A DNA stretch of 20,000 nucleotides from Psammoneis japonica (GCA_008632985.1 QPGO01000190.1:121495-141494); one strand, 5' to 3'; shown: positions 125 through 20,000, counted from the stretch's first letter. Notes: generated from the letters alone by a model not told the origin. Made by a program: numbers and translations.

Positions 125-140
125 GTATCAACGCCTCTCA

Positions 141-880: not shown

Positions 881-2174
881 CGCCACAAATCAGGATCTAC
901 TCTGATGCAATCCCAACCATCGTCGAGCACACGCGGCATGTGGCAGGCGGAACGATCATGAACATGGACGGTCGGCATGCGTTTTGTCTGAGTGACGTTT
1001 TCGTCAGTGCATCTTGTTTCTCTAGAAACAAACTTCTCTTCGGAGATTTTGAGTGTGTTTGTCGGGGTTCTTACATTCTCGAACAGCCCGAGGTGAAATT
1101 CGATCCGTTCTTCTCCCGCGTGCTCGCAAAGTCACTGAGCGGTGCTGCCAAATGATCTTCTGTTCTCCCTCTTTCTCACACACCCATTGCTCTTTGGACT
1201 TTTGTGCTTTGTGATGCAGGCTTTCGGTTGTCGCTCAAGGGTGACCAACACTGTCTCAATTTAATTTTACCCGACTTGACCAAAACAATGGCCAGTTGCT
1301 GGGGCATGGACGAATGCTGTCAACGGATTCTTCAGCACCGGTGCAAAAAATCTGTGTAGTGCAAAGTGGTTCTTAAAAACTTGAAGTCTGCAAGGTGCTT
1401 AAAAAACAAAGGAAATGCTGCTGCACCGCACCCAATGCATTGTTGTAGAAATCCGTGAACTGGATGATGGGTGGTTGTTGGGCAGGCGCCCTGCGTGTGT
1501 TTGTCTGGTTACGATCTGCCTGTTTTCGTGTGAAGAGGACATGGGTTAAATTCCATGGACATTTGGGCGCAACTTTAGAGTGGCACTTGAGACGACACGA
1601 CACAATGTGCCTTGCATTTTCCATCATCATTTTCACAATGCCAGTGTTTCCCTTCATGTTCGAAACCATGAGTGCGGTTTGCTTGTCACAGTCAGCACCA
1701 TCCTGTCAAATCCTTGGTCACACATGGAGGAATCGCAGCCGTGTCACCCCAAGATGCGGTGGCAAACAGCGGTCTGGTTGCACGACAATCAAGCAGCTTG
1801 CTTGCTTGTGTGCATCTGCCAAATCCTTGACTGCTGTGAGTGACTTCTTTGTCCATTTGTGCTGAGCTGGGACACACGGCATTTTGTCGCATTTGGCGAC
1901 ATTTTCTTAAATGAGTTGATGATTTGTCGTGAAAAGACGTGAATTGCGACAAAATGTCCGGGTTGGCGACAAACGGGACAGAAACATTGTTCAATTGAGT
2001 TTTAAAATGATCAATGTCATTTATGACCAACCTGCACTTTGGCGATGTCGTTTCAACAAGCGGGGCAATTGACAGAATTTGGCGGTCGATGTCATCGACG
2101 AAAATTCATCCGACAAATTTTGTCGCGGACATCCGACAAATTTGTCGGATGTCCGACAAAATTTGTCGGCATGC

Positions 2175-2295
2175 AACACGACAAGACACAACATGACACG
2201 ACACGACAAGACACGACACGACACGACACGACAAGACATGACACAACAAGACACGACACGACACAACACGTCACGACACGACGACTCACGACTCA
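2175..2295 (+). repeat. (ACACG)n-type pentanucleotide microsatellite inside the TIR element
   Basis: acacgacaagacacaacatgacacgacacgacaagacacgacacgacacgacacg... Confidence 0.9.
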
Positions 2296-2508
2296 CGAAC
2301 GAAACACCCACGCCCCCCGCACACACCAACCGCTAACGTCTCCGTTGACACTGTGTCTCTTTTGCATGATGATGCAAAGCGACGATCATGCCGCTCTCGG
2401 CGGTCTCCAATGTTTCATCCACAATCTCGTGGAGACGGCACGTCCACACGACTGGGCACTTCTGAATGTTGGGGAGCGTTGCATTATCGGCATGTCGCAA
2501 ACGTCCGT

Positions 2509-2692
2509 CTGTCGGCGTTTGTCGGCTCTTGTTGGCGTTTGTCGGCTCTTGTTGGCATTTGTCATACGTTGTCGGGGTTTGTCGGGGCTTGTCGGGGTTT
2601 GTCGGGGTTTGTCGGATGCGACAAAATTTGTCGCACGTCCGACAAAATTTGTCGCACGTCTGACAAAATTTGTCGCATCCGGCAAAATTTGT
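2509..2692 (+). repeat. 10-bp (TGTCGGGGTT-like) tandem units followed by three to four ~21-bp units containing the near-palindrome CGACAAAATTTGTCG
   Basis: tgtcggcgtttgtcggctcttgttggcgtttgtcgg...; then cgacaaaatttgtcgcacgtc repeated at 2619-2692. Mirror copies of the motif occur at 2097-2170. Confidence 0.85.
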
Positions 2693-4886
2693 CATTGACA
2701 AGTGCAGTCTTCGCCGAAAGTTAAATTCATCACATGGCACTGCAGTTGACACAACGTTTGTGTTTGGGACACGCCATTGCCAATTAAATGATGTTTTTGT
2801 CTCATTTATCGCCAACGATTGAAATTTGTCTCAAAGGGCGTTTTTCACGACAAATCGTCCAATTCATTTAAGGGAATGTCGCAATTGGCGACAAAATGCC
2901 GTGTGTCCCTGGTCTGGAAGCATGGAACAAGCCATGCCTCACTTCAATGTCATGCGTGGACCCTGCACGGCATCGAGCACATTTGCTGAAAGAAAACACA
3001 GCCCAAACGCACCACTGTGACTGGCTCTCTTTAGAGACGGGCTTTTTTGGCCAGCTCTGGTCATCCTGAATGACTCGTTGTCCACCCTTTCAGGTTTTGT
3101 CATCAAAATGAATCTCTGGAATGTGTCCCACAAAGTTGGCCACTGCAAAATCATCGTCAGACAGATCTGATGCGGACCCACCCTCTGTTTTCAATGCAGT
3201 GCAAAAATGAAGATTTAGGTGCAACAGCGGACCACAGTGGGGTGAGGCAGAGGACACCACAGGGCAACCACAGGATTCTGCTGTGCAGAGATTTGATTTT
3301 TCGAAACTTCCCTCTGACACACCGTGCGTGCATGATGTTGGGGCATGCTGCAAACACACACCATCCCACATGCCATGCCACCAGCAAATCAAAATTGACA
3401 AGACAAACCCCCATGCTGCACTGCACAAACATTTGCATTTGCCAGCAGTGGCAACAATTTCCATCTGCAATCTTGCAACAGAGAGTGGCGCAAATGCACC
3501 TTCTCAGCACTTCTTGTTTCTCTGCTGAAATTCTGTTTAAAAAAGTTTTGCTGGGTGCAAAGTCAAAAATGAGCAGACAAGTCTTCACTTGCTGCCACAG
3601 TGTGCTCGCTGTGATTCTTGGCATGGTGTGTGGAACAATGGCTCGACTGACAACTGGATGAAAATTTCAGTTCAGCAGAACCACCGCACAGTCAAAAGAA
3701 AAGAGTCATGCCACACCACCACAGCAAAAGAGCTGCTGACAAAAAGACAAACCCAAATTAAATGCTGCAAAGCAACAGTGTGCATTGAAAAAGCACATCA
3801 TCCAAAACAAGCCTCTTTCAATTCACGACGTGACACCACGCAATGTCCCAACATGTCACAGACACAAACATGATGTGCGGTCTCTGGCCACAGTGCCAGA
3901 TTCTTGGCTGCCAGCCACTCTGGCTCCTGGCAGTCTCAGCACCACTCCAAGGCCCACCATGCCAATGGCTGGCTTGCCTTCAATTTCTTGTCCCTTTGGT
4001 GGGCTGGACACTTTCTTGATGGTTGGTCAAAACATGAGAGGTGTGGATGAGTCCAAATGAGCAACTGTCCAGCGCGGCTCATTGCCAAAGACCAACACAA
4101 AGCTCAAGCCACCTCCTCACCTTGAGCACCAAGGCCAAGCCACCCCTTCCAGGAGGCTGACCACAACGGGGTTCAGTTTGCCATCGTTGGACCGATCCTT
4201 GACATTGAACAAATCCATGAAACCCCTGCAGACTCCAAGGAAAGCCAGCGGATGGTTGTGCCAACAAGCACCAGAGCAAGGCAAGCATGTGGCCAGTTCA
4301 CCCAATGTGCTCATCGAGACACAAGTTGCCAAGACACAGATGCTGCATCCCACATGGTGCACAATGCTCAAAAATCAAATTGGCAAAGGCAGCAATGTGC
4401 GGCTGAGACTCATGAGCACATTGGCACTGGAGCAACCGTTGCTGAGGGCCAACCACAAGCTGGTGGGGGGGCAAAGGTCAACAGCCCCAAACTCATCACA
4501 ATGGCATCAAAGTGTCCAAGGTTCTGCACAAAACTTGGGAGCGTTGAAATGTGCCATGAGCACCATGGAAAGCATGTGCCAAGAAGTGAAAAGGAGCTGG
4601 GGCCCAAGATGCTCAAGGCACCCTTGGCTCCAAAGGGTGGTTGCAATTTGGTCGCGACATCGCCCAAGCACACTTGCCACTCTTAGATGTGCTGTGATGG
4701 GTTGGCGGGAAATTGTTGTTGGCGCTGGCCGCATCATCATCGTGTTGAATGTGCTTGGGTGCAACCGCCATTTCGAGCATTGTTCTGCGTGCTGTTTTGC
4801 ACGTACAAATGTGCGAAAAATTTGGACGCACCGAGACCCACGGCCCGCAAGCGCACGGCATATCCAGTTGAATCTGCTGTATCACC

Positions 4887-5864
4887 ATGTCGAAACCACC
4901 GGCTGCCAAGCGCCTTTGCGTAGACTTCTCAAGCACTGTGTTTGAGCTTGTCATTGGTAGTGGATTCTTTCCATGGTATGAGTTGAATGATGAGTGCCGC
5001 GTCGTTTCAAAAGGTTGGAACGAGGCCATTTCGACGGCGTTGAACAACGCGCCATTCTTTAAACAACTTGTTGAGCACATTGGCAAGCTCAATTGCTGCA
5101 ACAAGTGTGAATGGTGCAACCAGATTTATAGTGAAAAAAGTCGTCATGTATTTTGTATGACAAATGCTGGCAGTGATGAAAGGGCTCTAAAGGAGAAGGA
5201 TCCGCGCTGCCAAGATTCGTTCGATTCGCTTTCTAGCTTTGAGAAGGCGAGGCGATTGTATCTATTCCATGCAAAATGCATTTCCAACCTCCTGTCATTC
5301 TATGGAGAAGAGCTCTCTATAGAGGAATCGCTCTGTGCCCGCTATTGCATTCCTCATGATTGGTTCTGTGGCATGACCAGTCTTCGCGATTACAATCCAA
5401 ATGCCCATTGGCTCTTCATGGGCCTCGTCGAGCTACACATTGCCAAGATCGACTTGGCGCAAGGAACTTACTGGTATAAGCCTGCCTTTGCTGGTAGAGA
5501 ACGTAGTGCTGGGCGATTCACTGGGTCTTCCTATTATGGTTGGACTCACGACATTGTATTAGAAAAGCTCAACGGCGCTCCCCACGAAGCGGATGAGCGC
5601 AGCTTTGATGCTTTTTATGTAACGCGACGATCAGGAGAAAGGGGACGCTGGTACAAATCACAATTCAATCATCTGGAGGATATTATCAAGGGAATGCTCA
5701 ACGAGCGTGATTTGGTGGCCGATCAGTTGCTTGGAGAACAGTTGGCGAACCGCATTGACATTATGCACAAGGCACGCGATTCCATGATTCCTCGTCTCCC
5801 CGACATTTTCCCACTCGAGTGGATGCCAGTCTTTGAAGACGACTATATGTACGCGATTCCATGA
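4887..5864 (+). CDS. Hypothetical protein, 325 aa, with a possible divergent N-terminal F-box-like motif
   Basis: Intact ATG-to-TGA ORF with normal composition (14 Tyr). N-terminal PPAAKR (NLS-like) and VFELVIGSGFFPWYELNDECRVVSKGWNE resemble the F-box '..VSK.W' signature. The domain call is weak. Confidence 0.7.
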   Translation: MSKPPAAKRLCVDFSSTVFELVIGSGFFPWYELNDECRVVSKGWNEAISTALNNAPFFKQLVEHIGKLNCCNKCEWCNQIYSEKSRHVFCMTNAGSDERALKEKDPRCQDSFDSLSSFEKARRLYLFHAKCISNLLSFYGEELSIEESLCARYCIPHDWFCGMTSLRDYNPNAHWLFMGLVELHIAKIDLAQGTYWYKPAFAGRERSAGRFTGSSYYGWTHDIVLEKLNGAPHEADERSFDAFYVTRRSGERGRWYKSQFNHLEDIIKGMLNERDLVADQLLGEQLANRIDIMHKARDSMIPRLPDIFPLEWMPVFEDDYMYAIP

Positions 5865-6076
5865 TTCCTCGACTGATGAGAGTTTCAGTGGATCATTATT
5901 TGTTTGTGAATAAGTGTCCGGGATGAATAGCGACGCGAATAATGATGCAAAGGGATTGTGCATATCACCGGCAATTTTCTGCATCGATCTAAATTGTACT
6001 ACCGTAGCTTTCGCTGTATGGGGTCGATTCGACGATAGGCTATGTAGCGATACTTGCATTGGCTTACTAGTTTAGA

Positions 6077-7769
6077 TTGTTTATATATACATATATTGAT
6101 TCTATGCTGCTGCGTCGGAAAGGAGTTGAAATGTACCCTAAACATGCTGCGGATGTTGGAACAAAACTTCCGTTGGGCACCAAATGCAATCGCTCTGTCC
6201 ACCAGCAGCGACTGCACCAGACAGCATTCCAGCGGTTGGGACGCTATGTGAGAGCTAGCGAGAGCGATTGACGGATCAGGAGCAGTGCATCTGCCAAGCT
6301 CTTTACGCTTCATGTCTCTCACGTATCGGTCAAGACGAGCTGGCAGTTGTTTCTTATGATGCGTCTCTTTCACTCAAGCAATTTCTTACCGAAGAAACAC
6401 TTCAGGAAGTTCTTCAAGGAAAGGCGAAAACTCTTCAAAGACTGATGCGCTACGAGGAAGCCAGGAATGTCTTCTTCAGAGGTCAAATAACGGGATACTA
6501 TACGTGTGCGCTGCAGCAACTTGCTCCCTTCGGTTGGGTGCTACAGAATGGGCAATCCGAGTTTTGAGCATGTTTTGTGAGGACATAAAGAATAGCAGTA
6601 GCTTTCGTGCATAGGTAATACTCGGAGCCTTATTGGCCGTTGTCGATCACGAGAATGTCGACCATGAACGAATTGGTAGACAACTTGCACAGGGAGCCGT
6701 AGCTGAGCCACTCTTCTCCTGGATACATGCAGTCTGGCAGCTAAAACACGGTGACAAGCTAGCCCTTCTTAACACGTCCGGCGAACGGCAACATAACGTA
6801 GATTGCCACTTGCTTCTGGCAAAGGCCAACCAATCACCATTTGATTTTCCTTCCTTGATCCAATTGGATAATGAGGTCATCCTTCATCGGCTGTTAGCGA
6901 GCAAAGATGACGGTTCGGATGGAAATTTCTGGCCCACTGGATTCGTGCTCCCGGAGGAGTCTGCGAAACTACGGGCGCATATTGCTGATTCTCAAGCCAT
7001 GTCATCTTTGCATAATCTCAAGACGTGGATTCTGAAGAAACCATGTGGATACGGATCTCATGGCAACAAGTTGGTTACAAGTACTGAAGCAATCCAGACC
7101 TCTGAGAAAATGCTGCCGGGTCAAAGATGCCTTTGCCAACTAATGGTAGAGCCGCCTTTGCTTATTGAGGGCAGGAAGTTTTCATTGCGGATTTACGTTG
7201 TATACTTTTCGGAGTCCGCTTCAGGTGACGACCAATGTGGATATCTTTTTGTCTCGGACCAGGGTTTAGTTAAACTTGCTTCTGTCCCCTACGAAATTGG
7301 ACAAGATAGAAATGACGATCGAGCTCACATGACGAATTCTGGTCGAGAAGAGGCCATGACCAAGCAAGACTTAGTGTATCTCCGAGGGAATTTTGACAAA
7401 TGAGGCTTCCATTACAGCAAATTCTGGGTTTGCACATACAAATCGATACCATCAGTCATAGGAAGTTACGTCAAGAATATAATGGTAGAGGGAACGGTAT
7501 CCTATCGGTCTCGACTTGCCACTTTTGGAACCCCCAAAATCTTGGGCTTTGACTACGTGCTCGACGCTAACGCCACACCGTTTTTGATCGAGGTCAATCG
7601 CTTTCTCAGCCGGGAAGCAAGGGACAGAGGTGAAAAGTCTGTCAAGCGTAGAGTGGTTTTGGATGCATGGTTCTGTGCTGCCGACATACTTGGTGTGGAT
7701 CCATGGGATTGTTTAGGGATACAGCATCAACTGCTGAGTATAGACACCTTTCATCACGGCGCCAGTTAG
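6077..7769 (+). pseudogene. TPR plus tubulin-tyrosine-ligase (TTL/TTLL, ATP-grasp) family gene, disrupted
   Basis: TTL motifs WILKKPCGYGSHG, CQLMVEPPLLIEGRKFSLRIYVV, GLVKLAS, HMTNS and ILGFDYVLD..PFLIEVN are present. An in-frame TGA at 7401-7403 separates same-frame ORFs 6633..7403 and 7482..7769. Upstream fragments in other frames include TPR-like KAKTLQRLMRYEEARNVF. The 5' boundary is uncertain. Confidence 0.82.
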
Positions 7770-8593
7770 TCACCAAACAAACCGCAGTCTTCAACGTGCT
7801 TCCCGCTTTCAAACCCTTTTGCCGATGTTAGATTTACCAACCTCCTGTCCGTATCCTCCGCCTTCACTAGCGTGCCTTCTTCGTGAGAAGTGTGGAAGAA
7901 TTGTCGGAGTATCTCATCCAGTTCATCGTATTCATTAAGTGCCGTCGTCGTGTTAGCCTCACACGCTAGGTGAGCGTAGTCGAGGAAAGTGACACTACGT
8001 TCACCGCGATCTTCTTGCGCTATCGCATAGTGAAACATATCTCTCTCCGCCTTGCCAACACAATAAATTGACACGGTTGGAAACGGCTCTATGGCACAGA
8101 AGGAAGACTTGTTGACAACGACAAAACGTGGAGGCGATGAAGGGGGGTGCCCGATGGCTTCTTGATCTATGATCTCCTGAACAAAACGAACTCTAAGCCA
8201 CAAACTGGATGTCACATTGAGATCAATAGCCTCCCAAATCTCATACAGACTTAAGTTTCAATTAGGAGCCCAGAAGCCCAAGCGTACCTGCGTTGCTTAT
8301 TAGTATGGCACGATCAAATCAACTGAATGAAGAAGATTCCTCTTCCAGAATTTATCCAGCTCGGAAAGGTCAAATGCAATTTCCCCAAATTCGAGTGTGT
8401 GATGAGCTTGTGTTTCGTTTGGAAGGAGTCTTTCAGTCTCAAACAAATCGTCCCGCGACCGCACTACGAGAGACACTCGAATGATGGATATTTCATCAGA
8501 AGCATTTTTAACAAAAGAAGCTGCGATGGCACGTCCAATCCCTCTTGAGGTCCCAGTAGCAATAACTAGCATGGATGACACAATGCGAATCAC
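7766..8593 (-). pseudogene. Sepiapterin-reductase-like short-chain dehydrogenase pseudogene, copy 2
   Basis: VIATGTSRGIGRAIA (Rossmann TGxxxGxG), frameshift near 8300 into LISNAGTLG followed by a stop, then NVTSSLWL, VVNKSSFCAIEPF, IYCVGKAERDMF (YxxxK) and FESGKHVED. These match the sepiapterin reductase pattern (YCAGKAARDM; FxSGxHVD). Confidence 0.85.
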
Positions 8594-8806
8594 AACGCCA
8601 CCATTTCTTCACAACGAGATCAACTCCAATGTGTTTTGCGACGGACGCGTTGTGACGGCCTCTTCGGTCTAACTTGCCAAGCTGGAAGAGCGAGAGAAGC
8701 GCGCTATCCTTATAAAATTACTCGACTGAAATCAATGACTCACCATAATGTACGGTGGTAGCAACATCGAAAAAAGGTTAACTTCTTCAGGCTTCAGAAG
8801 ACGAAT

Positions 8807-9981
8807 CTAGTACCCATCCGGCCACTGGACAGGAAGCATCTTGTCATCGAAACACTTCCCTTCATCTAACCCGGTACCCCAGGTAACTCGCTTGGCAAGA
8901 ATTTGGACGCCAGCTTGTTCAGCTTTACGAAGATACTTGCAAAGGAAGGACAAGCTTCGTGGTTCGGTCGAAAGGATTCGGCATCGCCTCTAATCACAAC
9001 AAATAACACGGTGGTTTTGTATCGTTCACCATTTTCCCCGCGCAGTGTGCCTTTAGCAATGCGAGTGAGCTCTTGGACGTGGTGTATGGCACGAGCCGAG
9101 ACAACCTTTTCGCCATCTGGTCCTTTTTGATTTGATTTACCCCAAGGGAATATAGCTGTTCTGCTGTACGGCTGCTGATCGCTTGCAAAGATGCACTTTA
9201 GCTTTTCAGGATTTGGTAGAGCTGAGGAAGCATAGTCGGTGTCTACCACGGTTTTCACTTCAACAATACGCTTCGTGCCATCCAACTGAGTCACTAAGAA
9301 ATCACTGCGCATATTTGCTCCGCATGGATTTCGGATTTGTGTTTGAATGCTGGACATGCGAGGCAAGTCAGGAATCAGATTGTTGCGCAGCCAGGTCTCG
9401 GCAATGCGTTCTCCAAGAGACGGGTGTGCGCCAACCCATGTGGGAGGATAAAGCGTCGGTTCGAGGTGGGATTCGTCAACGAGCAGTAATTGAGTAATGA
9501 ACTCACACTTTGGCGTTCCGTACTTGGGAGAGACTGCGTCCGCACCAATTTTTACGCCATTTCGACCACGAGCAGGCTTAAGCAAGAGCGAGGCGCCGGG
9601 AACACACTTACCACCCATGTCAAGATTTGGTACATGCGCGATGGCTTCACGTTGTTCAGCTTCGAGCCATACGTCAGCAACATATGGGCTCCTGTTGCGC
9701 TTGGAAGGCCGAGCTGTCAATTTCGCCTCAACAAGCTCCTCATCTACGGCAAGGGAGAACAGAGGATCTCGACACCCGTCGCAATCCGTTGAAATGATCG
9801 GTTCAGGAGACGCCGCCCCTCCTTTTTTCATCGTCCCCCCCAATTGAGAAGTCCTCGCCTTTTTGGCTGCGACTTTTCTTGTCACACTCGAGCGGCGCGT
9901 AGAAACCATGACAGCGAAAGATCGACCTAAATCTAGTTCAGCGAAGAGAGCAGACGGAAGGAACAAGAGCTTGACTCTCAT
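8807..9981 (-). pseudogene. sfsA: SfsA-like (sugar fermentation stimulation protein, PD-(D/E)XK nuclease fold) gene with a 1-bp frameshift near 8937 (real lesion or sequence error)
   Basis: Motifs RPSKRNRSPYVADV, AHVPN, RSDFLV, VEVKTV, AIFP, VSARAIHHVQEL and LFVVIRGDAESFRPN. After CPSFA the SfsA-like tail continues in another frame (YLRKAEQAGVQILAKRVTWG...QWPDGY*) to a stop at 8807. The start may be at 9981 or 9909. Confidence 0.85.
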
Positions 9982-10246
9982 GCGGTTCAAGAAATGGAGG
10001 ATCGTATGAAGTCTTCGTAGTAGCAACACAGAGTCTTCTCATGCGGTACCTGACAGTCATGGGCGAGAAGTTGGGAATAAAGAATCATCAGCCGACCGCT
10101 GACGGTTGCGTGAAAGTACCGTATGCGAGATGAGATAGAGAGTAGACTCCTCTAATCTGTCGTCCATCAGGTTCTGAGTTAGTTCTTGAATTTTCCCGAC
10201 CCCGCCTCCTCCCCCCAAACTCCCCACGCTACCGCGCAAAACCTCG

Positions 10247-10462
10247 CAGCCAAGACTCTAAGCCAAGCAAGGAGAGGACCTCCTTGACTGGACCGAGAGT
10301 CACCGCGCGAATGTAGGAGCGAAATGGGTTGAAGGACGGACGACGGACGAGACGAGCGGAAACGAGGCCAGCCCAAGGGATCCCCTCATTGTCTGGCAGG
10401 ATGGGAGACACCATGGCACTGTCGGAGGCGTCTCCTGGGAGATGCCAACGATGAAAATCGAA
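10247..10462 (+). repeat. Split direct repeat A1 (216 bp)
   Basis: Identical to 18203..18418 except T10314 versus C18270 (gaatgTAgg / gaatgCAgg). Confidence 0.97.
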
Positions 10463-11385
10463 TGGCTTTTCTCCCTCTCCTGTCAGTCAATGCTGAAAAT
10501 CCCTTGCGTGGTCTGCTTGCGCAGCCGGGAGTGTCTCGTGCATTGGTGCCATTTGCCACCACGCCATTTCGGCGCTATCCTGTGGATGCACCTCCCAATT
10601 TTTTTCGCTGTTAATGCTGACTACGGTCACGCCATCTTGGCGCCATGTCATGTGGGCATTGCTCCAAATCCCGACTGGGTCCGCTTGTCAGCGGGGGCGC
10701 TTCGGCGGCCGAGGATTGCCTCGCACTCTGGCCCATTTGCCACACCTTTCAACGGTGCTTTCTTACAAGGAGTGCATCCTCATATAGACGGTCTCAGCAC
10801 CATTAAAGTCCCGCATGGGCAAATGGCAGTGTGGCTTTTTCATTCCGCCTGCCACTTTCTCCTGAACGCCCAGGTTGGGCCTTTTTCTTTTGCGGCTCTG
10901 CGGTCCATGGTCATCGCCTTCCCCCTCGGCGTGTCCAATTTTTTCCCTCTCCTGGGGACACAGCATGTTTAGGCTTGCACACCAGCACACCACAGCATCG
11001 GAATTGCCAGTTCTGTCTGGTCGATGTCAACTGCACACACACATGTGCATTCCCGCGAGGGTTTGGTCAAAACGAAATTTGCCACCACGTTTCGGGGTTT
11101 TTCGTCTTCTCGCGAAATGCGCGCCATCACGATGATGAATGGTGATGGAAACTGACCCGTCACATGGGGATGAAACTTGGATTTCTTTCTTGTCTCCATT
11201 CATTGGACAAGCACAGGAATCGCGAAGGGTTGCGTTCGCGGAACTGACACGGTGTCAGTCAACGCTTGTCCTTCTCGAGCAATTTCCACACGCTGGTGTC
11301 CTTCACTTTCCGGTGAGATTGCTCTCACTTTTCCTTTTTTGCGATCGGACGAGCCTTTAGTTTTCTGCTGCCCTGTTGTTCCACC

Positions 11386-13663
11386 ATGAACCAAGCCCAC
11401 GCTGCTGCCATCAACCGCGGCAAGCTCTCCGCTGCAAAGCGGTGCTCCGCCGCTTTGCCCTCCTCCACGGGTGCGATCGAGTCTGTCTCAACTGCTGTCC
11501 ACCGTGACACCCAGAAGGAGCTACGAGACCATGTCTTCGCGACCTCTGACCTTTTCTACGCGGTCCACAATCGCAAGATTGCGGTTGTGGCGAAACCTCG
11601 CCCCAGGCAGCACGCCGATGGGAATCTAAAGTGGATCGGGAGCCTCTCGGATGCGATCGGCGAGGTCATCCCGATGTCTGGTAGTTGGACTCGTTTCCAA
11701 GGCCATGCAACCACTCTAGTCCCCCAGGGCACTGTGGACACTTGTCACCTGCCCAAGTGCGAACTCAGCCCTGACGAGATTGACGGTCCCGTTGGCAACG
11801 ACGGCAACAACGTGCCGGCGTCGATGGGTCGTCTCCATTTTGGGAATCCTTCCGGACCGGCAGAGCGTCCCTCCATCGTCGCGCTCCCGATGTTCCTGCC
11901 AATCCCAACGGGCGTCACCCTTCCTGCTGACTTCGACCCAGCAGATCCCCCGGCATCCCTTGCCACTGACTTTCCGCTTGGAGCGGTTTGGGCTCAGGGC
12001 ATGTCCTGGTTGCTTCAGCACAACGCTTCTGTCTCTGTCACGGAAGGCGGCCCCATGTTTGAGCAGAATGGCTTTGCAATTGTCGATGAGTTTGCAGGCC
12101 TCGAGATCTGTGATCTCGACAACAATGACGCACAGATGCTCCAACCTCTGACGGATTGGTGTGCACCAGTCAAGACCACGATGGACGCCTTTGCAGATGA
12201 GACCTGGAGGCAACTCGGTGGAGAAGAGCCCGCGCAGATGCAAGCTCCCGCCGCCCCAGCCCAAGGTGCCAATGGACAGGTTCCGAACTGTGCCATCCAT
12301 GTCCCACGCCAGGACTCGAAGAAAGAGTCAGACCAGAAGCTGAGGGCGCGCGACATTGGTCACCGCTGGTCACTCTGTGCGTTCCGAGCGACTGCTGGTG
12401 CAGGTCCGGAGGACCCGCCTGTGATCATCGTGGGCGAGCTTACGGACCAAGCGGCTGAGATTCTTCAGGACACGTCGGCTGCCAATGCAAACCGTGACCT
12501 CGCGGATCTTGTTAAGATGGCTGTTGTTGCATCAGCCCGTGGTGACAGCAGTCTAGACGCTGGGGTCGACTGCAAGTGCACCATCGTCAACAAGGCCTGC
12601 ACGGACTGTTTCCACGGCTTTAATGTGGTTGCGGAGCCCCCGCAGCATGGCCAGGCTTCGCACCGCACGAAGCTGTCTGTCCTTCCTTTTCTTCCCCCGA
12701 AGACTGCATCATCTTCATTTGCTGGTCTCGAGGACGAAGGGAGGGTGCTCCATCGGGTGCTTGCCAATGGCTCCGACTGCAAGATCCCCGATGACGTGAA
12801 GGCAAGCAACCTTTGTGTCCAAGGAAGGATGGACACCGCCAGCAATCTGTGGTCAGTGCTTTGCAACTTTTGCTGTGTCCTTGGATGCTGGATCAAGGAC
12901 TTCGACAATGCGGAGCTGTGGAAGTCCCTGGATGCGCACGCAAAGGTTCTTTGGTCGCACCCGGGCCGCACGTGGCTCAAGAATCTCGAGGACCCCAAAC
13001 CAGTCGTCGCCAGCATCCCAGACAATTTCCAGACTATCATCAAAGTCCACTTTGAGATCGGAGACTCTCCATTGTGCCGTCAGGCGGTAGAAACCGAGCG
13101 TCCACTGAGCCATCAGATGGCAAAGGACGCTCGCACTCTGGTCGTCCCTCATTGCGGACCTCAAAACCGCGATCACGCGGGGCAAGCCTCTGGCCTTTGC
13201 GGAGGCATCTACGTTGGCCCTTGTCCCCCTGGGCAACTCTGTGTTCCTCCCTGCTAGCAGAACGAAGGATGATGCGACCAAGTCTGGTCAACCTCCGAAT
13301 GAGAAGCTGCGCACGGGGGAAACAGATGACAAAACCGCCAAGCTCTGCAAGGCGATGGGCATGCTCAATTTTTCGGGCACGAAGCGGCTCCCGACCAGCC
13401 CCGTTTTCTACAAGAAGCGAGGATCAGATCAGGAGGAACGTTTCTGCATGTGCTTTTGCACTGAGGGGCACTTCTGCAAATTCCCCAACTGCCCGAAGCC
13501 CCACCCATCGTCACTCTCCAAGATTCCGAGTGAAAAGAGGGATGCCTTTTGCCAATTTGTCAAAGACACCCCGGGACTCGATTTTGTTCCTGGCAAGGGC
13601 CCAGACGGTGCGTCCCAATCAGGTTCGAATGTTCCTAGTCTGTGCACTGCACCCTGTTGCTAA
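11386..13663 (+). pseudogene. gag: Gag-like ORF1 of the YR retrotransposon, frameshifted at ~13145, with a C-terminal CCCH-like zinc finger
   Basis: First long ORF of the element (11386..13257). Protein-like sequence continues in the frame of ORF 13214..13663 (LIADLKTAITRGKPLAF...RFCMCFCTEGHFCKFPNCPKPHP). The assignment rests on position and the Cys/His finger. Confidence 0.75.
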
Positions 13664-13744
13664 TGCAGTGTTGTCCAAAACTGTTCTGTTTTTCACTCTC
13701 GATTAGTCTACGTTATCCCTGACAGGTCCGTTCGTCTCATCGCA

Positions 13745-16606
13745 ATGGATGTCGACGACGACAGCGATCAGGAGTGCGAGGTGATCGATGCAGAGCAAGA
13801 CGAGACCGGAATGAGTGTCGCTGAAGCCATCCCAGCTGTTGATGCTGCACTTGCCACGTCGGTGAAGGAGCCGCACCCGAGCCTGTGCCGAGGTGCGGTC
13901 ACGCCGCAGCCTCCCGTCAACGAGAATGAGCTGATCGAGCCATTCCCCACCTTCTCCATGGTCCACAAGAAGAAAGGGACCGATTTGATTCCTACAATCA
14001 ATGACGGCTTCAATGAGAAGGCACGTGAGCACTTTGCCAATGCGGAACCATCGCCGGGCATGCGTGCTAAACTGGACCAAAAATTCGGCAAGGAAAACTT
14101 GAATCAATGTTTCTTGTCGGAAGCGTGTTTGCGTCATGTGTTGCCACCGCTGTTGAAATCTGGGTGCATGTCGCCACCGGTTGATTGCATGAGTGACTCA
14201 TCTGCCCAAATCGTCTTTGGGGGTGATTGGGAGAACTTCGGAGCGGCCATCCCGGAAGCAGCCGAGCCCATGAGCCTGGTCCGGGAATGTGGCGACATCG
14301 ACTTTAATCCTCTCCAAGGCTGCCCCGAGGGATGGCAAAAAGAGACAACGGTCAGTGTGGATAGAGCTGCGATGACAACTGCCGCGTTGTTGCATTTTGA
14401 TGGTGACCCAGCAAACCTCGTTCGCTGGGTTGGCGGACCGCACGTCGGTGAACACAGACACACGCAGAAAATGCTCCGCTTTCTACAAGGTCGTGCACCC
14501 GACGAGACAACAGCACACGTTCGCCGCATCTTCCAAGACGGGGCGCCAGCGAAATGCAACACTGCTTTCACTGAAGCCAACTTCCAAGCAGCTCTCAAGT
14601 GTGGAAACCACAAGACCGTCGACGCTGCACCTGACAAAACATTGGCGGCAGTCGCCAAGGACAATCGCAAGGGTTTCACGCCACTTTTTGACCAGCGTCT
14701 GGTGCCGCACTTGCTGAACTGCCATCTCACTCCTCAGGGGATGGTGGACCTTGACAAGAAATGCAAGAGTCCACGCCCCATCTTCGACAGCACGATGCGA
14801 GCGACTCCGGGTGGCATGGCAATCAACGATGCGTTGGACCTCAAGCACGAACCGCCGATCACGTTCCCATCAGCGGAAATGGACTTTGTGGTGTGGACAT
14901 GGAACATGAGAACATCCCACCCACACGAGGAGATCCACCTCGGCGATGATGATGTGAGTGGCGCTTTCCGCAACCTGAAGCACCACCCGAACCTCGTCGG
15001 GATGCATGCCAGCGTCCAGTGTGGACTGGGCGTCCTGCAGACGGGTTGTGCCTTTGGCGATGAGACCAACCCAAGCAACTGGGACGCTGTTGCCAATGCA
15101 AGACAATGCCTTGCTCAACAATTCTGGCTGGTGCCCAACGTGGTGGAACTCACCCAGCAGTGTCTCCCGACGACATCATTCGCCGAACCTCCTGCAGCTG
15201 AAGAGGCAGCGTCATTCTGTCCTGCGGAAGCAGACGCTGTCAATCCGGGCATGTTCCTAGATGGCTGCCGTTTGCCACCAACATGCAAGCACCACGTTGA
15301 CGATGACTTCTACGGAGACATGCATGACTTGATGAAAAGAACAGTCGCTGCGAGCGCCCTGGCCGTGTGCGTTTTGTTGGGCTTCCCACGCGATGAAACT
15401 CCGGATTTCCCAAGCAAAGAGAAACTGGACACACTGTGCTCACATCTCCGACGAGCCCTGGGAAGGCACTTCAACTCAAGAGCGCTGTCGGTGGGAATGC
15501 TCCCATGCAAACGAGAACAGTTCCTTGAAACTTTGCGAGAATGGCGCGACAAACAACGGCACACACTGTTGGATGCAGCAAACCCAAATGGTCAATGTGA
15601 ACTCCATGCGCGGTGTTGTCCATGGGCTCGGCCGAATTTTTTTGCACTCCAGAACTCCACGCGGCGGGCCATGGTCGTCCAATGCGCCATTGTCAAACAA
15701 ATCATGGAGCGACAAAATTTCAAATTAAATTTTGAAACTCAACTGCCGAGTCATCTCAGAAATGGGCCACCGAGCTTGCTCGCGCGCACACAGGCCCAGC
15801 TCCTCTGTCAGCTGAAGACCGAGATCCCGATGACATCCAATGTCATTGATGTGACAAAGGACACAGTGTCCTACATCGAATCAACGCCAGACCCATGGTC
15901 AGCACCGATTGGATGTGTCACACCGCAAGTGCCACATTGCCAGGCAATTGGAGACGCCAGCAACGCAGGCGGAGGAGCCCACTGCGCAGAACTCAAATTT
16001 TGGTTCGCATTTCTTTGGGGACCAAAAACAGCGAAAGGGCTCCGGCTGAGGAAGGCCTCCGACCCAGTGCATGTCCATGTCAACACAGCAGAGTTTGTTG
16101 TCATCACACTCAAGCTGGCAGCTGTGATTGTCCGCATGGAGACTGTGACCCGAGAACGGGCCCATGAGTTCTTCCGGAACGGCGTCGTCCCACTGCACCT
16201 GGTCGTCAGGAGTCGTTCAGACAACATGGTGTCGGTCAACCGGTCCAACAAAGCAACGTCAAAGTCGCCACAGGGGCAACGATTTGTCTGGGTCTTCTGC
16301 AAATTGCTCCACCGTGCTCGTGCCAACTTCAACGGAGATCACATCTTTGGCGACGAAAATTTTGTTGCCGACGATGTCTCACGACCTTCTGTTTTTGCCT
16401 TGATCTCGCATCGCACCCATTCTGAACAGCTGTTTCGGAAGTGTCCCTTTCTGAAGACCTGGGACTGTTTCCAGCCGAGTCAAGAGCTGCTGCAGCTCCT
16501 CTCCTCACAGCTGTCTGCCAAGCACAGAATGGCACCCCAGATCCCAAGCGACTTGGGACAGCTCGTTCCCGCAGAATCCATTTCCTCTGCTTTTGTAAGA
16601 GTGTGA
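13745..16606 (+). CDS. pol: Reverse transcriptase plus RNase H (open frame, heavily mutated)
   Basis: RT motifs PRPIFD, DDDVSGAFR, GCAFGDETNPSNW and HHVDDD. DIRS-type RNase H motifs GDASNAGGGA, HVNTAEF, RSDN and HIFGDENFVADDVSR. Confidence 0.93.
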   Translation: MDVDDDSDQECEVIDAEQDETGMSVAEAIPAVDAALATSVKEPHPSLCRGAVTPQPPVNENELIEPFPTFSMVHKKKGTDLIPTINDGFNEKAREHFANAEPSPGMRAKLDQKFGKENLNQCFLSEACLRHVLPPLLKSGCMSPPVDCMSDSSAQIVFGGDWENFGAAIPEAAEPMSLVRECGDIDFNPLQGCPEGWQKETTVSVDRAAMTTAALLHFDGDPANLVRWVGGPHVGEHRHTQKMLRFLQGRAPDETTAHVRRIFQDGAPAKCNTAFTEANFQAALKCGNHKTVDAAPDKTLAAVAKDNRKGFTPLFDQRLVPHLLNCHLTPQGMVDLDKKCKSPRPIFDSTMRATPGGMAINDALDLKHEPPITFPSAEMDFVVWTWNMRTSHPHEEIHLGDDDVSGAFRNLKHHPNLVGMHASVQCGLGVLQTGCAFGDETNPSNWDAVANARQCLAQQFWLVPNVVELTQQCLPTTSFAEPPAAEEAASFCPAEADAVNPGMFLDGCRLPPTCKHHVDDDFYGDMHDLMKRTVAASALAVCVLLGFPRDETPDFPSKEKLDTLCSHLRRALGRHFNSRALSVGMLPCKREQFLETLREWRDKQRHTLLDAANPNGQCELHARCCPWARPNFFALQNSTRRAMVVQCAIVKQIMERQNFKLNFETQLPSHLRNGPPSLLARTQAQLLCQLKTEIPMTSNVIDVTKDTVSYIESTPDPWSAPIGCVTPQVPHCQAIGDASNAGGGAHCAELKFWFAFLWGPKTAKGLRLRKASDPVHVHVNTAEFVVITLKLAAVIVRMETVTRERAHEFFRNGVVPLHLVVRSRSDNMVSVNRSNKATSKSPQGQRFVWVFCKLLHRARANFNGDHIFGDENFVADDVSRPSVFALISHRTHSEQLFRKCPFLKTWDCFQPSQELLQLLSSQLSAKHRMAPQIPSDLGQLVPAESISSAFVRV

Positions 16607-17682
16607 AGTGGCATCTGGGAGATCCGGAAATGACTGTGATTGGCAAGGACCCAAAGTGCTGCCAACTGGTGCCAGCCATGTGTGCTTTGCATCTAGCTAG
16701 CGGCTCCACTCTCTGCTGCAAGAACATCTCCTCAGGTGCCATCAAGGAACATGTCCATGACATGTCAACGTTCGTGTCTCCACTTGGTTCCACGTGTCGG
16801 GACGTCCGCAAAGACAACAGCGTGGACACCAAGATGGGGTGGATCCTCAGGGGAGCATTCGATGAACTCCAACGGTGCGAGAAAGTCCCGGAAAGGCGCG
16901 AGTCACACACGTTGCTCATGCAGCAACGAGCGACGTCGACAGCAGACACTGTGCGAGAAACCGACCCGGATGCGATCGAAGTGGTCCTCGCTGACTGGTT
17001 TGAGATTGGGCCAATGGCCGGCTTGCGAAGTGTTGAATGGGCCCAATCCAATGAACACTCAGAACTGGAGAATCCAAGGCTGAACATCTTTGAGGAGACC
17101 TGCGCGTTCTGCCTCGACGACGTCCGATGCGAGACAAAAGACAAGCGCCGACACACCGGGGCGGATTGTCTTGTCCCCAAGCAAGAGGATGTCGAAAGCA
17201 TGCGTGTCATGTTCCGAGCTCAGAAGAACATGCACAATGGCGAGGAATGCCAGTTTGCTGTGAACCTTGATGGCAAGCACGACTTGGCAAAGCCGATGCT
17301 TCGCGTTGTCCGACGTTTCGTGCGGGTCCGTGGCAAGGACGACAAGATCTGCCCCCTTGCTCTCTACTTTGATCCAGAGAAGGGCAAGCACCGTCTCGTC
17401 ACGTCCAAGAAAATCGAGACCCACATGCGCCGAATTGCCGCAGAAGTGCACCACCTCGACCCGGTGAAAGACAAGAAAGCTCTTGGCAAATGGTCGGCTC
17501 ACTCCCTCCGTGTTGGAGCCTGTAATGTCCTTCACGAGATGAACTTTAGTGGCGAGCAGATTAAATGGCTGCTCAGATGGCGATCTGATGCCTTTGTGGC
17601 TTGTCTCCGCAACTGCCTGGGTCTTTCCCAGGCCCATTGTCGAGCTCTCGACAAGGCGGCACCCATGCCGTTCTTCGATTAA
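16441..17682 (+). CDS. Tyrosine recombinase (open frame; catalytic Tyr position is Cys), overlapping the RT/RH 3' end
   Basis: GLRSVEW (catalytic R), AQKN (K), HSLRVGA (HxxR) and LLRWRSDAFVACLR (W, plus the expected nucleophile Tyr seen as TGT at 17602-17604). The true start is uncertain. Confidence 0.92.
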   Translation: MSLSEDLGLFPAESRAAAAPLLTAVCQAQNGTPDPKRLGTARSRRIHFLCFCKSVKWHLGDPEMTVIGKDPKCCQLVPAMCALHLASGSTLCCKNISSGAIKEHVHDMSTFVSPLGSTCRDVRKDNSVDTKMGWILRGAFDELQRCEKVPERRESHTLLMQQRATSTADTVRETDPDAIEVVLADWFEIGPMAGLRSVEWAQSNEHSELENPRLNIFEETCAFCLDDVRCETKDKRRHTGADCLVPKQEDVESMRVMFRAQKNMHNGEECQFAVNLDGKHDLAKPMLRVVRRFVRVRGKDDKICPLALYFDPEKGKHRLVTSKKIETHMRRIAAEVHHLDPVKDKKALGKWSAHSLRVGACNVLHEMNFSGEQIKWLLRWRSDAFVACLRNCLGLSQAHCRALDKAAPMPFFD

Positions 17683-17950
17683 TTCCTTTGTGCGGATTCA
17701 ACACATCCCCTTTCCATGTGTCCTCTCTGCGTGACATAAAATCGCACACTGTTGTCCCATTGCATCTGAAATTTCAATTTTGAAATTCGAAATTTGATCC
17801 TGGCAACGTGATCGCACACATGTGTTCAGGAGGAACATTTGTTCCTCCATCATGTCTGAAGAAAATAGATTTTTTTTTCCGGCTGGCTCTGCCTCCGATG
17901 ACATGGGCGCGTTCGCAATGCTTCCAGCATTCCGCGTCGGCAGCATGGTG

Positions 17951-18201
17951 TGCACACAGTGAAAAAGGGAACCAATTGCTTGGCACTGGCGATTCCAAGC
18001 CTGGCCCCACATCCTAATTGCTTCACCTGCTGGCGACTGTTTTCATCGTGGCAACAACATGAGTCTACACACGGACATGAGCACTGCGCATGTCACAGAT
18101 GACACCAATGTGTTGCATCGACAGATGAGAGACGCTTCCACTGTGCCATGTCATCAGAGTGCAGACAGCCGAGGCGGAGGCAGGGAATCCATGGGATTCT
18201 C
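17951..18201 (+). repeat. Split direct repeat B1 (~251 bp)
   Basis: Gap-free alignment to 18438..18688 with about 23 differences, all transitions. Confidence 0.95.
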
Positions 18202-18202
18202 A

Positions 18203-18418
18203 CAGCCAAGACTCTAAGCCAAGCAAGGAGAGGACCTCCTTGACTGGACCGAGAGTCACCGCGCGAATGCAGGAGCGAAATGGGTTGAAGGACGGACGAC
18301 GGACGAGACGAGCGGAAACGAGGCCAGCCCAAGGGATCCCCTCATTGTCTGGCAGGATGGGAGACACCATGGCACTGTCGGAGGCGTCTCCTGGGAGATG
18401 CCAACGATGAAAATCGAA
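18203..18418 (+). repeat. Split direct repeat A2
   Basis: 215/216 identical to 10247..10462. Confidence 0.97.
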
Positions 18419-18437
18419 AACCCACCACTCCCTCCCC

Positions 18438-18688
18438 TGTGCACAGTGAAAAAGGGAACCAATTGCTTGGCACTGGCGATTCCAAGCCCAGTCCCATGTC
18501 CCAATTGCTTCACCTGCTAGCGACTGTTTTCATCGTGGCAACAACATGAGTCTACACACGGATGTGAGTGCTGCGCATGTTGTAGACGACACCAATGTGT
18601 TGCATCGACAGACAAGAGACGCTTCCACTGTGCCATGTCATCGGAGTGCAGACAGCCGAGGCGGAGGCAGGGAATCCGTGGGGTTCCC
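18438..18688 (+). repeat. Split direct repeat B2
   Basis: Gap-free copy of 17951..18201 (offset 487). Confidence 0.95.
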
Positions 18689-19063
18689 CCTGTGGTGCAG
18701 TGGGGGAGCTGTGTGTGTGTGCGTGTGGTTGTGTGCACACGGCTTCGCCGTGCGTTGAGTTTTAATGTTAATGTCCACACGCACGTGCATGTTCCACAAG
18801 CAAAAATTCCTGTTCCACAGCTCCCCTAAAACTCTAACCACCAAAAACCGAGGGGTTGGAAGCGCACTTTCGGGAGCTCTTTTTCTCCGCACAAAAAACA
18901 CGCGTTTCGTCGACTCGACCATGATGATGCCTCGTGGTTCTTCCCCATCGCCTTCCCAGGACGCCGATCCCACTGACACCGTTGCCAATGACACTGATGC
19001 AACAGGTGATGTCATTGTTCCGGTTCTCGTGGGTGTGATGCGCACAAAATAAGATGCTGCAAA

Positions 19064-19575
19064 CTCACACTGTTGTTTGCATGCTCCACCGCCTCCCACA
19101 GATGCTGTCACGAATTCCAACACCGCACCTGCGTTTCGGGCCCCCAGCATGCCCGATGCTGTCACTCCCACCCTTGCTGCTGCAGGCGCTGTTGATGCTG
19201 TCACTGTGTTTTGCCAATGACGTCCACAATGAAATGTCAACATCTCACACTTCTTTCATTCTCGCCCCACCGCCTCCCACAGACACCATCACGAATTCCA
19301 ACACCGTGCCTGCGTTTCGGCCCCCTGGCATGCCCGACACTGTCACTCCTGCCCTCACTGCCGCAGGTGCTGTTGATGCTGTTGTTGTCTTTTTGCCAAT
19401 GACGTCCACAACGAAATGCTTGTAACTCACACTTCTTTCATTCTCGCCCCACCGCCTCCCACAGATGCTGTCACGAACTCCAATGCCGCACCTGCGTTTC
19501 GGCCCCCTGGCATGCCCGACACTGTTGGTCCCACCCTTGCTGCTGCAGTTGCTGTTGATGCTGTCATTGTTTTTG
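19064..19575 (+). repeat. Three diverged tandem units of ~180-182 bp in a TpA-depleted block
   Basis: Units start at ctcacac (19064, 19244, 19426), and each contains ccaccgcctcccacaga...cctgcgtttcgg...gcatgcccga...gctgttgatgctgt. Confidence 0.9.
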
Positions 19576-20000
19576 CTTTGGAAGGAACACAATGGATGAC
19601 GGATGACGGCAGACCAGGAAACCCACGCAACCACGGCCTGCTGATGGACGACACATCAATGGACATGAGTGGTGCCTCTTGGTCAGCTCTCGAGTGCAGT
19701 CCAATCTTTAGAACACACAGACACATTGTGCAGCTCTCTGTAAATTAGAAACCTGACAACAATTGGATGGCAGGCATGCTTTCACAGTTTTTTAGTTTCA
19801 AGTTGGAGAGGTCAGCGAACTGGCATTTGTTTGCAGGCGACTTGGCAAGGTTTCAAATGGTGCATGTGACTTGGACACTGCTCTATTTTCCAGGACTGGG
19901 TCATTGTGCACAACTCCATAAGAGGCCACTCTCGCCGTTTGAACTCTGCATGTGATGCACAACACACTGTTTTTGTGTGTTGCCAAAATGGAGGCAGGCA

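Follow-up and report, generated by a model that had tools for sequence, protein, structure and literature searches.

The stretch analysed here (QPGO01000190.1:121495-141494, assigned to Psammoneis japonica, 20,000 nt and referred to below as the window) contains a retroelement from which most of the dinucleotide TpA (TA) has been lost. The span 11200-17700 is the coding body of this element, which is a tyrosine-recombinase retroelement of the Ngaro type, and the whole element extends from 10243 to 18686. Its repeats and open reading frames (ORFs), all on the plus strand, are the following.

10243-10462 (+): repeat A1, the left end of the element; 220 nt, 99% identical to 18199-18418
11386-13257 (+): ORF1, 623 aa, in a gag-like position, hypermutated; tblastn matches to ORF1 of 9 full-length relatives, 22-27% identity
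13214-13663 (+): short ORF in another frame, with the Tyr of PVFY and a Cys/His-rich stretch; taken from the ORF list, no Pfam match
13745-16606 (+): ORF2, 953 aa, probable reverse transcriptase/RNase H, hypermutated; 77 homologues, 35-46% identity
16441-17682 (+): ORF3, 413 aa, tyrosine recombinase by the fold match of a relative; overlaps the end of ORF2 in another frame
17955-18199 (+): repeat B1; 245 nt, 92% identical to B2
18199-18418 (+): repeat A2, which pairs with A1
18442-18686 (+): repeat B2, the right end of the element, which pairs with B1

The assignment to the Ngaro type is based on the order of the terminal repeats, A ... B A B (10243-10462, 17955-18199, 18199-18418 and 18442-18686), which agrees with the arrangement A - internal - B A B that the available text of PMC3783388 describes for this type. 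The three ORFs, the last of them with a Cre-like fold, are a further likeness. Unlike typical Ngaro elements, neither the window copy nor its unmutated relatives gave a Pfam match in any ORF, RVT_1 and Phage_integrase included. One scan returned 156 related metagenome stretches, and 77 loci were retained; the family is a very divergent lineage of tyrosine-recombinase retroelements, represented so far mostly by metagenome contigs. Contig depth is 186-451 over the element and approximately 52-65 in single-copy parts of the window, which indicates that the element is multi-copy.

ORF2 is probably a reverse transcriptase/RNase H, by analogy with look-alike clusters of an atlas in which RVT_1 or RT_RNaseH is present in 10-92% of the members (scores 0.93-0.96); these clusters serve as a lead only, and a PDB sequence search with the ORF2 profile gave nothing credible (best E value 0.19). 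ORF3 belongs, on the predicted fold, to a tyrosine recombinase family: the ORF3 product of a relative, modelled with a pLDDT of 81.9, is similar in fold to Cre, Tn1549 integrase, XerA/XerH and lambda integrase, with 39 matches at E<=0.001 and a best E value of 4e-7. The family consensus includes the motifs HSLRVGA and LLRWRSxAFMxYLRN, in which we take the R, H-x-x-R and Y motifs of tyrosine recombinases to be visible. At position 17602 the window has TGT (Cys), where 96% of the relatives have Tyr. The recombinase of the window copy is accordingly predicted to be inactive, because Cys replaces the catalytic Tyr.

ORF3 begins 166 nt inside the end of ORF2 (16441-16606), in another frame. The relatives match the ORF3 frame from residue 1-5 and have the same overlap (e.g., L001 at 6442-6568), so that it is conserved; judged from the frames, it likely implies a frameshift or re-initiation. 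Between the ORF1 region and ORF2, the stretch 13610-13745 reads as a short GT...AG intron with CTAAT and is a candidate only. Four of the surviving TA are clustered at 13636-13714, inside this intron-like stretch.

Loss of TA and its products

The span 11200-17700 retains 37 TA, an observed/expected ratio of 0.12, together with ratios of 1.45 for TG and 1.29 for CA (545 TG and 549 CA). Among 43 relatives of the element the TA ratio is 0.39-0.84, which makes the window copy an outlier; those relatives with low TA (0.39-0.5) have low CpG and no excess of YTAR (Y, pyrimidine; R, purine), and thus no sign of the mutator. Overall, about 85-90% of the TA of the element is gone. The loss is reflected in all three proteins. 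Tyr accounts for 0.32% of ORF1 (2.14% in relatives), 0.21% of ORF2 (2.96%) and 0.24% of ORF3 (3.13%), while Cys has risen to 3.69% (1.08%), 3.46% (1.56%) and 4.84% (2.14%), respectively. In the 41 alignment columns with Tyr in at least 40% of the relatives, the window has Cys in 14, His in 7, Tyr in 3 and another residue in 17. Cys codons have increased from 18 to 38 per 1000, with no comparable gain of His. A tetramer mass balance against the relatives (TA -119, TG +96, CA +55) over-counts the gains and was not relied upon. Both this balance and the codon tables are confounded by the codon usage of the lineage, NCG codons differing as well, and they were used for Tyr, Cys and His only.

The polarity of the changes was determined by a reversion test, in which each TG or CA was turned back to TA and scored for restoration of the family consensus residue. 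The consensus was restored at 31 of 323 TG>TA and 23 of 213 CA>TA reversions, in total 54/536, as compared with 16/1295 for six control reversions (AG, CG and GG to NA; CC, CG and CT to TN). This difference indicates that the changes are TA-specific, with the polarity TA to TG or CA. Long overlapping ORFs on both strands crowd the depleted stretches, and in the dead element three frames have stayed intact. A change of TA to TG or CA would remove TAA and TAG and could not create an in-frame stop, so that ORFs would be expected to stay open.

The distribution of TA was mapped along the window in 667-nt bins. The observed/expected ratio is 0.03-0.23 per bin over 10673-20000, 0.00-0.32 over 668-4669 and 0.38-0.79 over 4670-10005. 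The depletion is thus restricted to foreign- or repeat-like stretches, and the neighbouring host genes are spared. For comparison with the element, three further stretches were delimited, without assignment to a strand.

1000-4669: second TA-depleted stretch; TA observed/expected 0.00-0.32 per 667-nt bin, 25 TA
4670-10242: host-like internal baseline; TA observed/expected 0.38-0.79 and TG+CA 1.07-1.39 per bin
17955-20000: third TA-depleted stretch, made up of the end of the element and high-copy repeats; 18 TA

The changes are found on both strands. The polarised products comprise 31 on the top strand and 23 on the bottom strand; per detectable site, T>C and A>G on the sense strand are equally frequent, each at approximately 0.20 of the expected detectable ancestors, and the strand bias is not significant in the model described below (sigma 1.46, p 0.14). 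The repeats of the single insertion provide further evidence. Of the 20 mismatched bases between B1 and B2, 15 belong to TA/TG/CA discordances, and at 6 of the 9 discordant sites one copy has TG where the other has CA. A1 and A2 have two differences, one of which is GTAG in A1 and GCAG in A2. Among the tandem units of 182 nt at 19028-19572, nearly all differences consist of TG versus CA at the same sites, and no TA is left in the aligned part; the three copies are not independent (copies 1 and 3 share states) and were excluded from the product ratios. Differences to other copies of the element include three adjacent pairs of CA>TG or TG>CA among 40 listed of 2459. Summed over all differences, run X1 has 369 A>G, 397 T>C, 582 C>T and 506 G>A, and between 63 and 91 of each type of transversion. 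Because changes on both strands, and copies of one insertion which differ from each other, place their origin on DNA, these comparisons demonstrate, at the level of sequence, that the element was mutated in place as DNA and on both strands.

Contexts of the surviving TA and the flank rule

The context tables of element and genes were drawn within the window alone. By class, the 37 TA of 11200-17700 comprise no RTAY, 19 YTAR, 13 YTAY and 5 RTAR. By tetramer, the counts are ATAA 0, ATAC 0, ATAG 1 and ATAT 0; CTAA 3, CTAC 10, CTAG 7 and CTAT 1; GTAA 2, GTAC 0, GTAG 2 and GTAT 0; and TTAA 6, TTAC 1, TTAG 3 and TTAT 1. Likewise, ATAT, GTAC, ATAC and GTAT are all absent from the 36 TA of 11386-17682. 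An earlier note on this DNA had claimed that RTAY is essentially gone and YTAR persists, that the survivors are mostly TTAA, CTAG, TTAG/CTAA or CTAC/GTAG, and that the coding span is free of the four RTAY tetramers just named. The counts bear out each of these statements, and the first is repeated in the two other depleted stretches. The note had further observed that every remaining in-frame Tyr codon is TAC preceded by C, which is correct, although one such codon, in GIY at 13210, had been overlooked: the three long ORFs contain five in-frame Tyr codons, every one C-TAC, and the Tyr of PVFY at 13409 (frame 13214-13663) is also C-TAC.

In 1000 dinucleotide-preserving shuffles, RTAY had a mean of 8.1 and was never as low as the observed 0 (0/1000), YTAR had a mean of 10.6 against 19 (P(>=) 0.003), and CTAC had a mean of 2.8 and was never as high as 10 (0/1000). 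GTAG, with 2 against a mean of 2.3, is not enriched. Uniform survival of NTAN, given composition, is thereby rejected. Moreover, among the 1569 sense-strand TA of 18 unmutated relatives the shares of RTAY, YTAR and CTAC are 0.32, 0.126 and 0.168, respectively, and the contexts of the survivors differ from these (chi-square p 1.9e-11), which argues that the pattern is not an ancestral legacy. In the host-like baseline, where NTAN contexts are spread close to evenly, RTAY makes up 77 and YTAR 50 of 257 TA. The corresponding values are 1/47 and 22/47 in 10463-17954, 1/25 and 16/25 (11 of these TTAA) in 1000-4669, and 0/18 and 10/18 in 17955-20000. When all depleted stretches are pooled, RTAY is 2/90 versus 77/257 in the host-like sequence (p 1.3e-11). 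The flank dependence of the mutator is real.

The pooled enrichment among survivors descends from TTAA (5.9x) through CTAG (2.3x), CTAA/TTAG (1.8x), CTAC/GTAG (1.3x), GTAA/TTAC (1.0x), ATAA/TTAT (0.7x), ATAG/CTAT (0.46x), ATAT (0.16x) and ATAC/GTAT (0.07x) to GTAC (0). With positions counted from the A of TA, the symmetrised profile at -2 is A 0.3x, G 0.6x, C 1.3x and T 2.1x; T at -3 (or A at +2) is enriched 1.7x (p 3e-5), and farther out than -3/+2 no effect of context was found among the survivors. TACG represents 6 of the 11 remaining sense-strand TAC as compared with 0.195 in relatives, and 9/28 versus 39/138 when both strands are pooled.

The survival of CTAC and GTAG, to which the note had given the same standing as that of YTAR, was upheld in part. 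There are 10 CTAC in the span, but CTAC/GTAG enjoys no special protection: its pooled enrichment is approximately 1.3x, and CTAC has no excess in the other two depleted stretches (0 versus 1.5 and 2 versus 1.7 in the shuffles). CTAC is the commonest sense-strand TA tetramer in the relatives (16.8-24.5%). Since it is ancestrally abundant and enriched on the coding strand only, and since GTAG is not enriched, the excess is mostly a legacy of codons of the form xxC TAC.

The tetramers of the survivors cannot separate a rule for a 3' pyrimidine from a rule for a 5' purine at -2, because TA is self-complementary and each survivor escaped on both strands; only the products discriminate. A competing-risk model was therefore fitted, in which the rate per strand is a(-2) x b(+1). 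It was fitted to 28 in-frame survivors together with the polarised events, 31 on the top and 23 on the bottom strand. Context counts for the ancestor were taken from 7-9 relatives, detection fractions were estimated by leave-one-out within the alignments of the family, and the ancestral scale was fixed at 0.7-1.5, a free scale having given degenerate fits. The negative log-likelihood was 96.7 for a uniform rate, 83.6 with -2 only, 80.8 with +1 only and 70.8 with both flanks, so that the two-sided model is better than either -2 alone (likelihood ratio, LR, 25.6, p 1.2e-5) or +1 alone (LR 20.0, p 1.7e-4). The relative rates for b(+1) are T 1, C 0.50, G 0.23 and A 0.05, and for a(-2) A 1, G 0.56, T 0.57 and C 0.16. 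Over 300 bootstraps, the median of ln b(Y)/b(R) was 2.05, with a 95% interval of 1.12 to 4.00, and that of ln a(C)/others was -1.57, with an interval of -2.74 to -0.88. Assigning the sides in mirror image was worse by 15.0 log-likelihood units overall, by 8.6 without TTA codons and by 6.2 with Tyr events only. Outside the model, differences between copies in strongly asymmetric contexts (GTAA/TTAC, CTAA/TTAG and TTAT/ATAA) follow the predicted direction in 4 of 5 cases (16596, 1149, 1211 and 18015) and the opposite one at 1133. The preference for T-A-pyrimidine with a disfavoured 5' C, proposed in the note, is close to these fitted rates, but the survivors from which it had been drawn could not by themselves have established the side. 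In the plain table of the 54 polarised events, the +1 position has A in 2 versus 9.6 expected and T in 19 versus 12.8 (p 0.028); at -2 the effect does not reach significance (p 0.38).

Several points weigh against this two-sided, oriented rule. Without the events in NTA codons the margin over the mirror image is only 0.9, and a symmetric R-T-A-Y rule fits best. In the plain table the effect at +1 is modest and that at -2 is not significant. In conserved columns, Tyr codons of the type C-TAC have become His in 3 cases and Cys in 1, with which the composition is in conflict, as it suggests mostly Cys (+13.3 versus -0.3). Tyr codons after A or G have become Cys in 11 cases and His in 4, a hint of bias towards the sense strand which the model can do without. 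The fit draws on a single 20-kb window, in which 28 in-frame survivors and 54 inferred events were available, and the ancestral baseline on relatives which are approximately 40% identical and belong to other organisms with other codon usage. Some of the TA counted as survivors could also be newly made. The fitted flank weights are accordingly to be read as rough. The rule nevertheless reads as an enzyme-like preference, and under the model the weights would represent the intrinsic preference of the agent rather than a mixture of attack and repair.

Explanations of the pattern and known systems

The observations are probably best explained by a Ngaro-type element which, in a diatom-like nuclear genome and once it was DNA, was hit by a process converting TpA to TpG or CpA on both strands and in dependence on the flanking bases. 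The element would have been inserted as DNA, and TpA would then have been changed to TpG or CpA on either strand, conserved Tyr residues, including the catalytic Tyr of the recombinase, being altered to Cys or His. On the strand with A>G, the change would be most rapid where the A is followed by T or C and where a purine stands at -2, and slowest where it is followed by A and where C stands at -2. The outcome would be an extinct R-TA-Y, mixed contexts mostly lost, and a persistent Y-TA-R, TTAA foremost and then CTAG and CTAA/TTAG. The TA specificity, the action in place and on both strands, the limitation to repeat- or foreign-like stretches and the flank dependence are established by the data presented above. 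As to the agent, we infer a DNA-directed enzyme, for which an adenine deaminase reading 5'-T-A-3' is the simplest candidate; it would be part of a genome defence aimed at repeats.

The survivors might, alternatively, owe nothing to a flank specificity of the mutator and reflect ancestral codon or context usage, selection on the remaining Tyr, or new TA in T/A-rich runs. The abundance of CTAC in the relatives and its enrichment in the coding span only would agree with such an origin, as would the survivors being rich in T at -3/-2 and in A at +1/+2, since slippage or transversions could create TA of this kind. However, RTAY accounts for 32% of the TA of the relatives and 30% of that of the host-like sequence versus 2/90 in the depleted stretches, two of which are non-coding or of unknown strand, and the dinucleotide-preserving shuffles reject chance. 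Selection is unlikely in a copy which lacks an invariant Tyr and the catalytic Tyr, and the Tyr that persist in 3 conserved columns were inherited rather than newly made. We regard this explanation as the least credible of those considered. A rule confined to one flank, whether it calls for a purine at -2 of the edited A or for a pyrimidine at +1, accounts for most of the survivor pattern in either form and is better than a uniform rate (LR 26.1 and 31.8, 3 degrees of freedom), but it is very unlikely in view of the superior two-sided fit. A pure -2 rule would predict a majority of Tyr>His, whereas Cys 14 versus His 7 was found, with the doubling of Cys codons noted above, and a pure +1 rule would leave 8 in-frame CTAC survivors and 10 Leu(CTA)>Pro(CCA) events unexplained.

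The remaining explanations concern the molecule and the base attacked. Editing of U-A in the transcript by an ADAR- or ADAT-like enzyme, fixed by reverse transcription, might be expected for a retroelement as carrier, and RNA adenosine deaminases prefer T (U) before the edited A. A slight excess of A>G on the sense strand (Tyr>Cys 14 versus Tyr>His 7) points in the same direction and is not significant, as stated above. Against this, T>C is as common as A>G on the sense strand (23 versus 31), B1 and B2 of one insertion, as well as the 182-nt units, differ between copies by TG versus CA, and the stretch 1000-4669, which has no features of a retroelement, bears the same signature. Furthermore, G at +1, the preferred 3' neighbour of ADAR, is disfavoured here (0.23). 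Editing at the RNA level is therefore hardly to be expected. Less remote, but still unlikely, is an attack on the other base, in which the thymine of 5'-T-A-3' would be modified or oxidised and pair as C, with T>C as the consequence. The sequence cannot tell whether A or T is the attacked base: TA is self-complementary, TA>CA on one strand being TA>TG on the other, so that all counts fit equally well, and on the T strand the flank rule is again of the shape R-T-A-Y. The sole published parallel, as far as its main text goes, favours deamination of adenine, as a hypothesis only (10.64898/2026.01.13.699255).

That parallel is the chlorarachniophyte Bigelowiella natans, and the mutator of the window belongs to the kind described there, once before and in another algal lineage. 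According to the main text of the preprint, 231 of 302 new single-nucleotide mutations fell in two integrated viral regions, and 230 of these 231 were A>G or T>C, all at TpA (Mettrop et al., 10.64898/2026.01.13.699255). The same text proposes deamination of adenine on DNA, with an ADAT2-like candidate, and reports that coding sequences poor in TpA and rich in CpA+TpG are enriched in reverse transcriptase and DDE domains (10.64898/2026.01.13.699255). As far as this account goes, B. natans and the window are alike in A>G/T>C at TpA giving TpG or CpA, in foreign- or repeat-like regions only. They differ in that the events in B. natans were seen live in mutation-accumulation lines, whereas the window is diatom-like and preserves the end state only, and in the target, which is here a tyrosine-recombinase retroelement with neighbouring repeats and a TA ratio of 0.12 versus 0.45 in the giant-virus region of B. 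natans. The words "context", "flanking", "trinucleotide", "tetranucleotide" and "logo" do not occur in the main text of the preprint; Figure 2B and the supplements may bear on this point. In the literature we found no flank rule, no diatom case and no other TpA mutator beyond the B. natans preprint.

Fungal repeat-induced point mutation (RIP) is alike in that dinucleotide-specific transitions at the DNA level ruin repeats in place and leave neighbouring genes untouched. RIP converts C to T mainly at CpA, creates TpA and lowers GC. Unlike RIP, the process in the window destroys TpA, creates CpA/TpG, raises GC and makes no in-frame stop; RIP was rejected on this opposite direction (TA 0.12, CA 1.29, TG 1.45, and the polarity of the reversions). 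Hyper-editing by ADAR, which prefers a 5' U and favours a 3' G, likewise produces clusters of A>G in repeats. As a candidate, RNA hyper-editing of the ADAR type was rejected, with bottom-strand products as frequent as those of the top strand and a rate of 0.23 for G at +1. In TadA and ADAT2-ADAT3, the edited A follows T (U) and a 3' pyrimidine is favoured, a likeness which holds only if A is the target here. The natural substrate of these enzymes is a tRNA loop, U-A-C-G for TadA, and not duplex genomic DNA. The mutator also appears to depart from TadA in that T at +1 (1.0) is at least as good as C (0.50), in the effect at -2, and in that TACG was not lost first. For the variant TadA-8e (A48E) a preference for "YAC" is given in the available text of PMC13109818. 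The link between TadA and the mutator may be drawn as an analogy only.

These comparisons allow a wider, tentative reading, which we advance as possible without favouring it: diatoms might possess a genome defence at the DNA level which edits 5'-T-A-3' in repeats and foreign DNA with a preference for R-T-A-Y or T-A-Y, of the same kind as in the chlorarachniophyte and either widespread or ancient in algae of the SAR group (stramenopiles, alveolates and rhizarians). If this were true, it would represent a counterpart of fungal RIP which raises GC and is free of stop codons, with a tetranucleotide fingerprint usable to find the enzyme. Mutators specific for TpA are known to date from one report (2026, in one alga and with no enzyme), and the same signature in a diatom-like genome would mean that the phenomenon is not peculiar to a single lineage. 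The quantitative flank rule (+1 T>C>G>>A; at -2 purine favoured and C disfavoured) provides a direct test for candidate enzymes, the prediction being that ATAT or GTAC would be edited in an oligonucleotide assay and TTAA would not. It is also a means to recognise old hypermutated DNA in other genomes. For annotation there is a warning, as dead elements of this kind keep long ORFs on both strands and lose Tyr to Cys or His.

Surrounding sequence of the window

Two host-like ORFs have recognisable domains.

6633-7403 (+): ORF of the TTL (tubulin-tyrosine-ligase) family; Pfam TTL match
8866-10029 (-): SfsA-like ORF; Pfam SfsA match

The window is eukaryotic. The SfsA-like product has 493 homologues, and among the 120 listed, with identities of 51-71%, those which carry a name are all from diatoms (Nitzschia, Pseudo-nitzschia, Cylindrotheca, Seminavis, Bacillariaceae and Asterionellopsis), for which reason the host is described here as diatom-like. 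In a Pfam scan of 16 other ORFs of the window, TTL was the sole match. The window sequence was found in the contigs of one DNA run, and no RNA run was listed.

The most extreme depletion of TA lies outside the element, at 3336-4669, with 2 TA in 1334 nt (observed/expected 0.00-0.04). This stretch has a CpG ratio of 0.22-0.28, TG+CA of 1.8-1.9 and a contig depth of 60-72, which corresponds to a single copy, and its ORFs gave no Pfam match. It is possibly an old relic in which both TpA and CpG have decayed. Its single-copy depth implies that being a repeat is not strictly needed for depletion. The adjoining 1335-3335 is high-copy (depth 1159-4368) with a TA ratio of 0.13-0.17; ACACGAC-like units of 5 and 10 nt follow one another at 2151-2302, and the stretch also contains an inverted repeat of 83 nt (1836-1918 / 2860-2942, 75% complementary). 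At the other end of the window, contig depth reaches approximately 7000 across 18677-20000, the region with the tandem 182-nt units.

A direct duplication of approximately 85% identity joins 1-886 to 7646-8467 (also aligned as 1-900 / 7646-8560). In the longer alignment this old duplication has an ordinary spectrum of differences, its 125 mismatches including 11 TA-type sites. In runs X1 and X2, contigs link position 132 to 7767 and omit 7634 nt, which indicates that a form without the intervening segment also exists.

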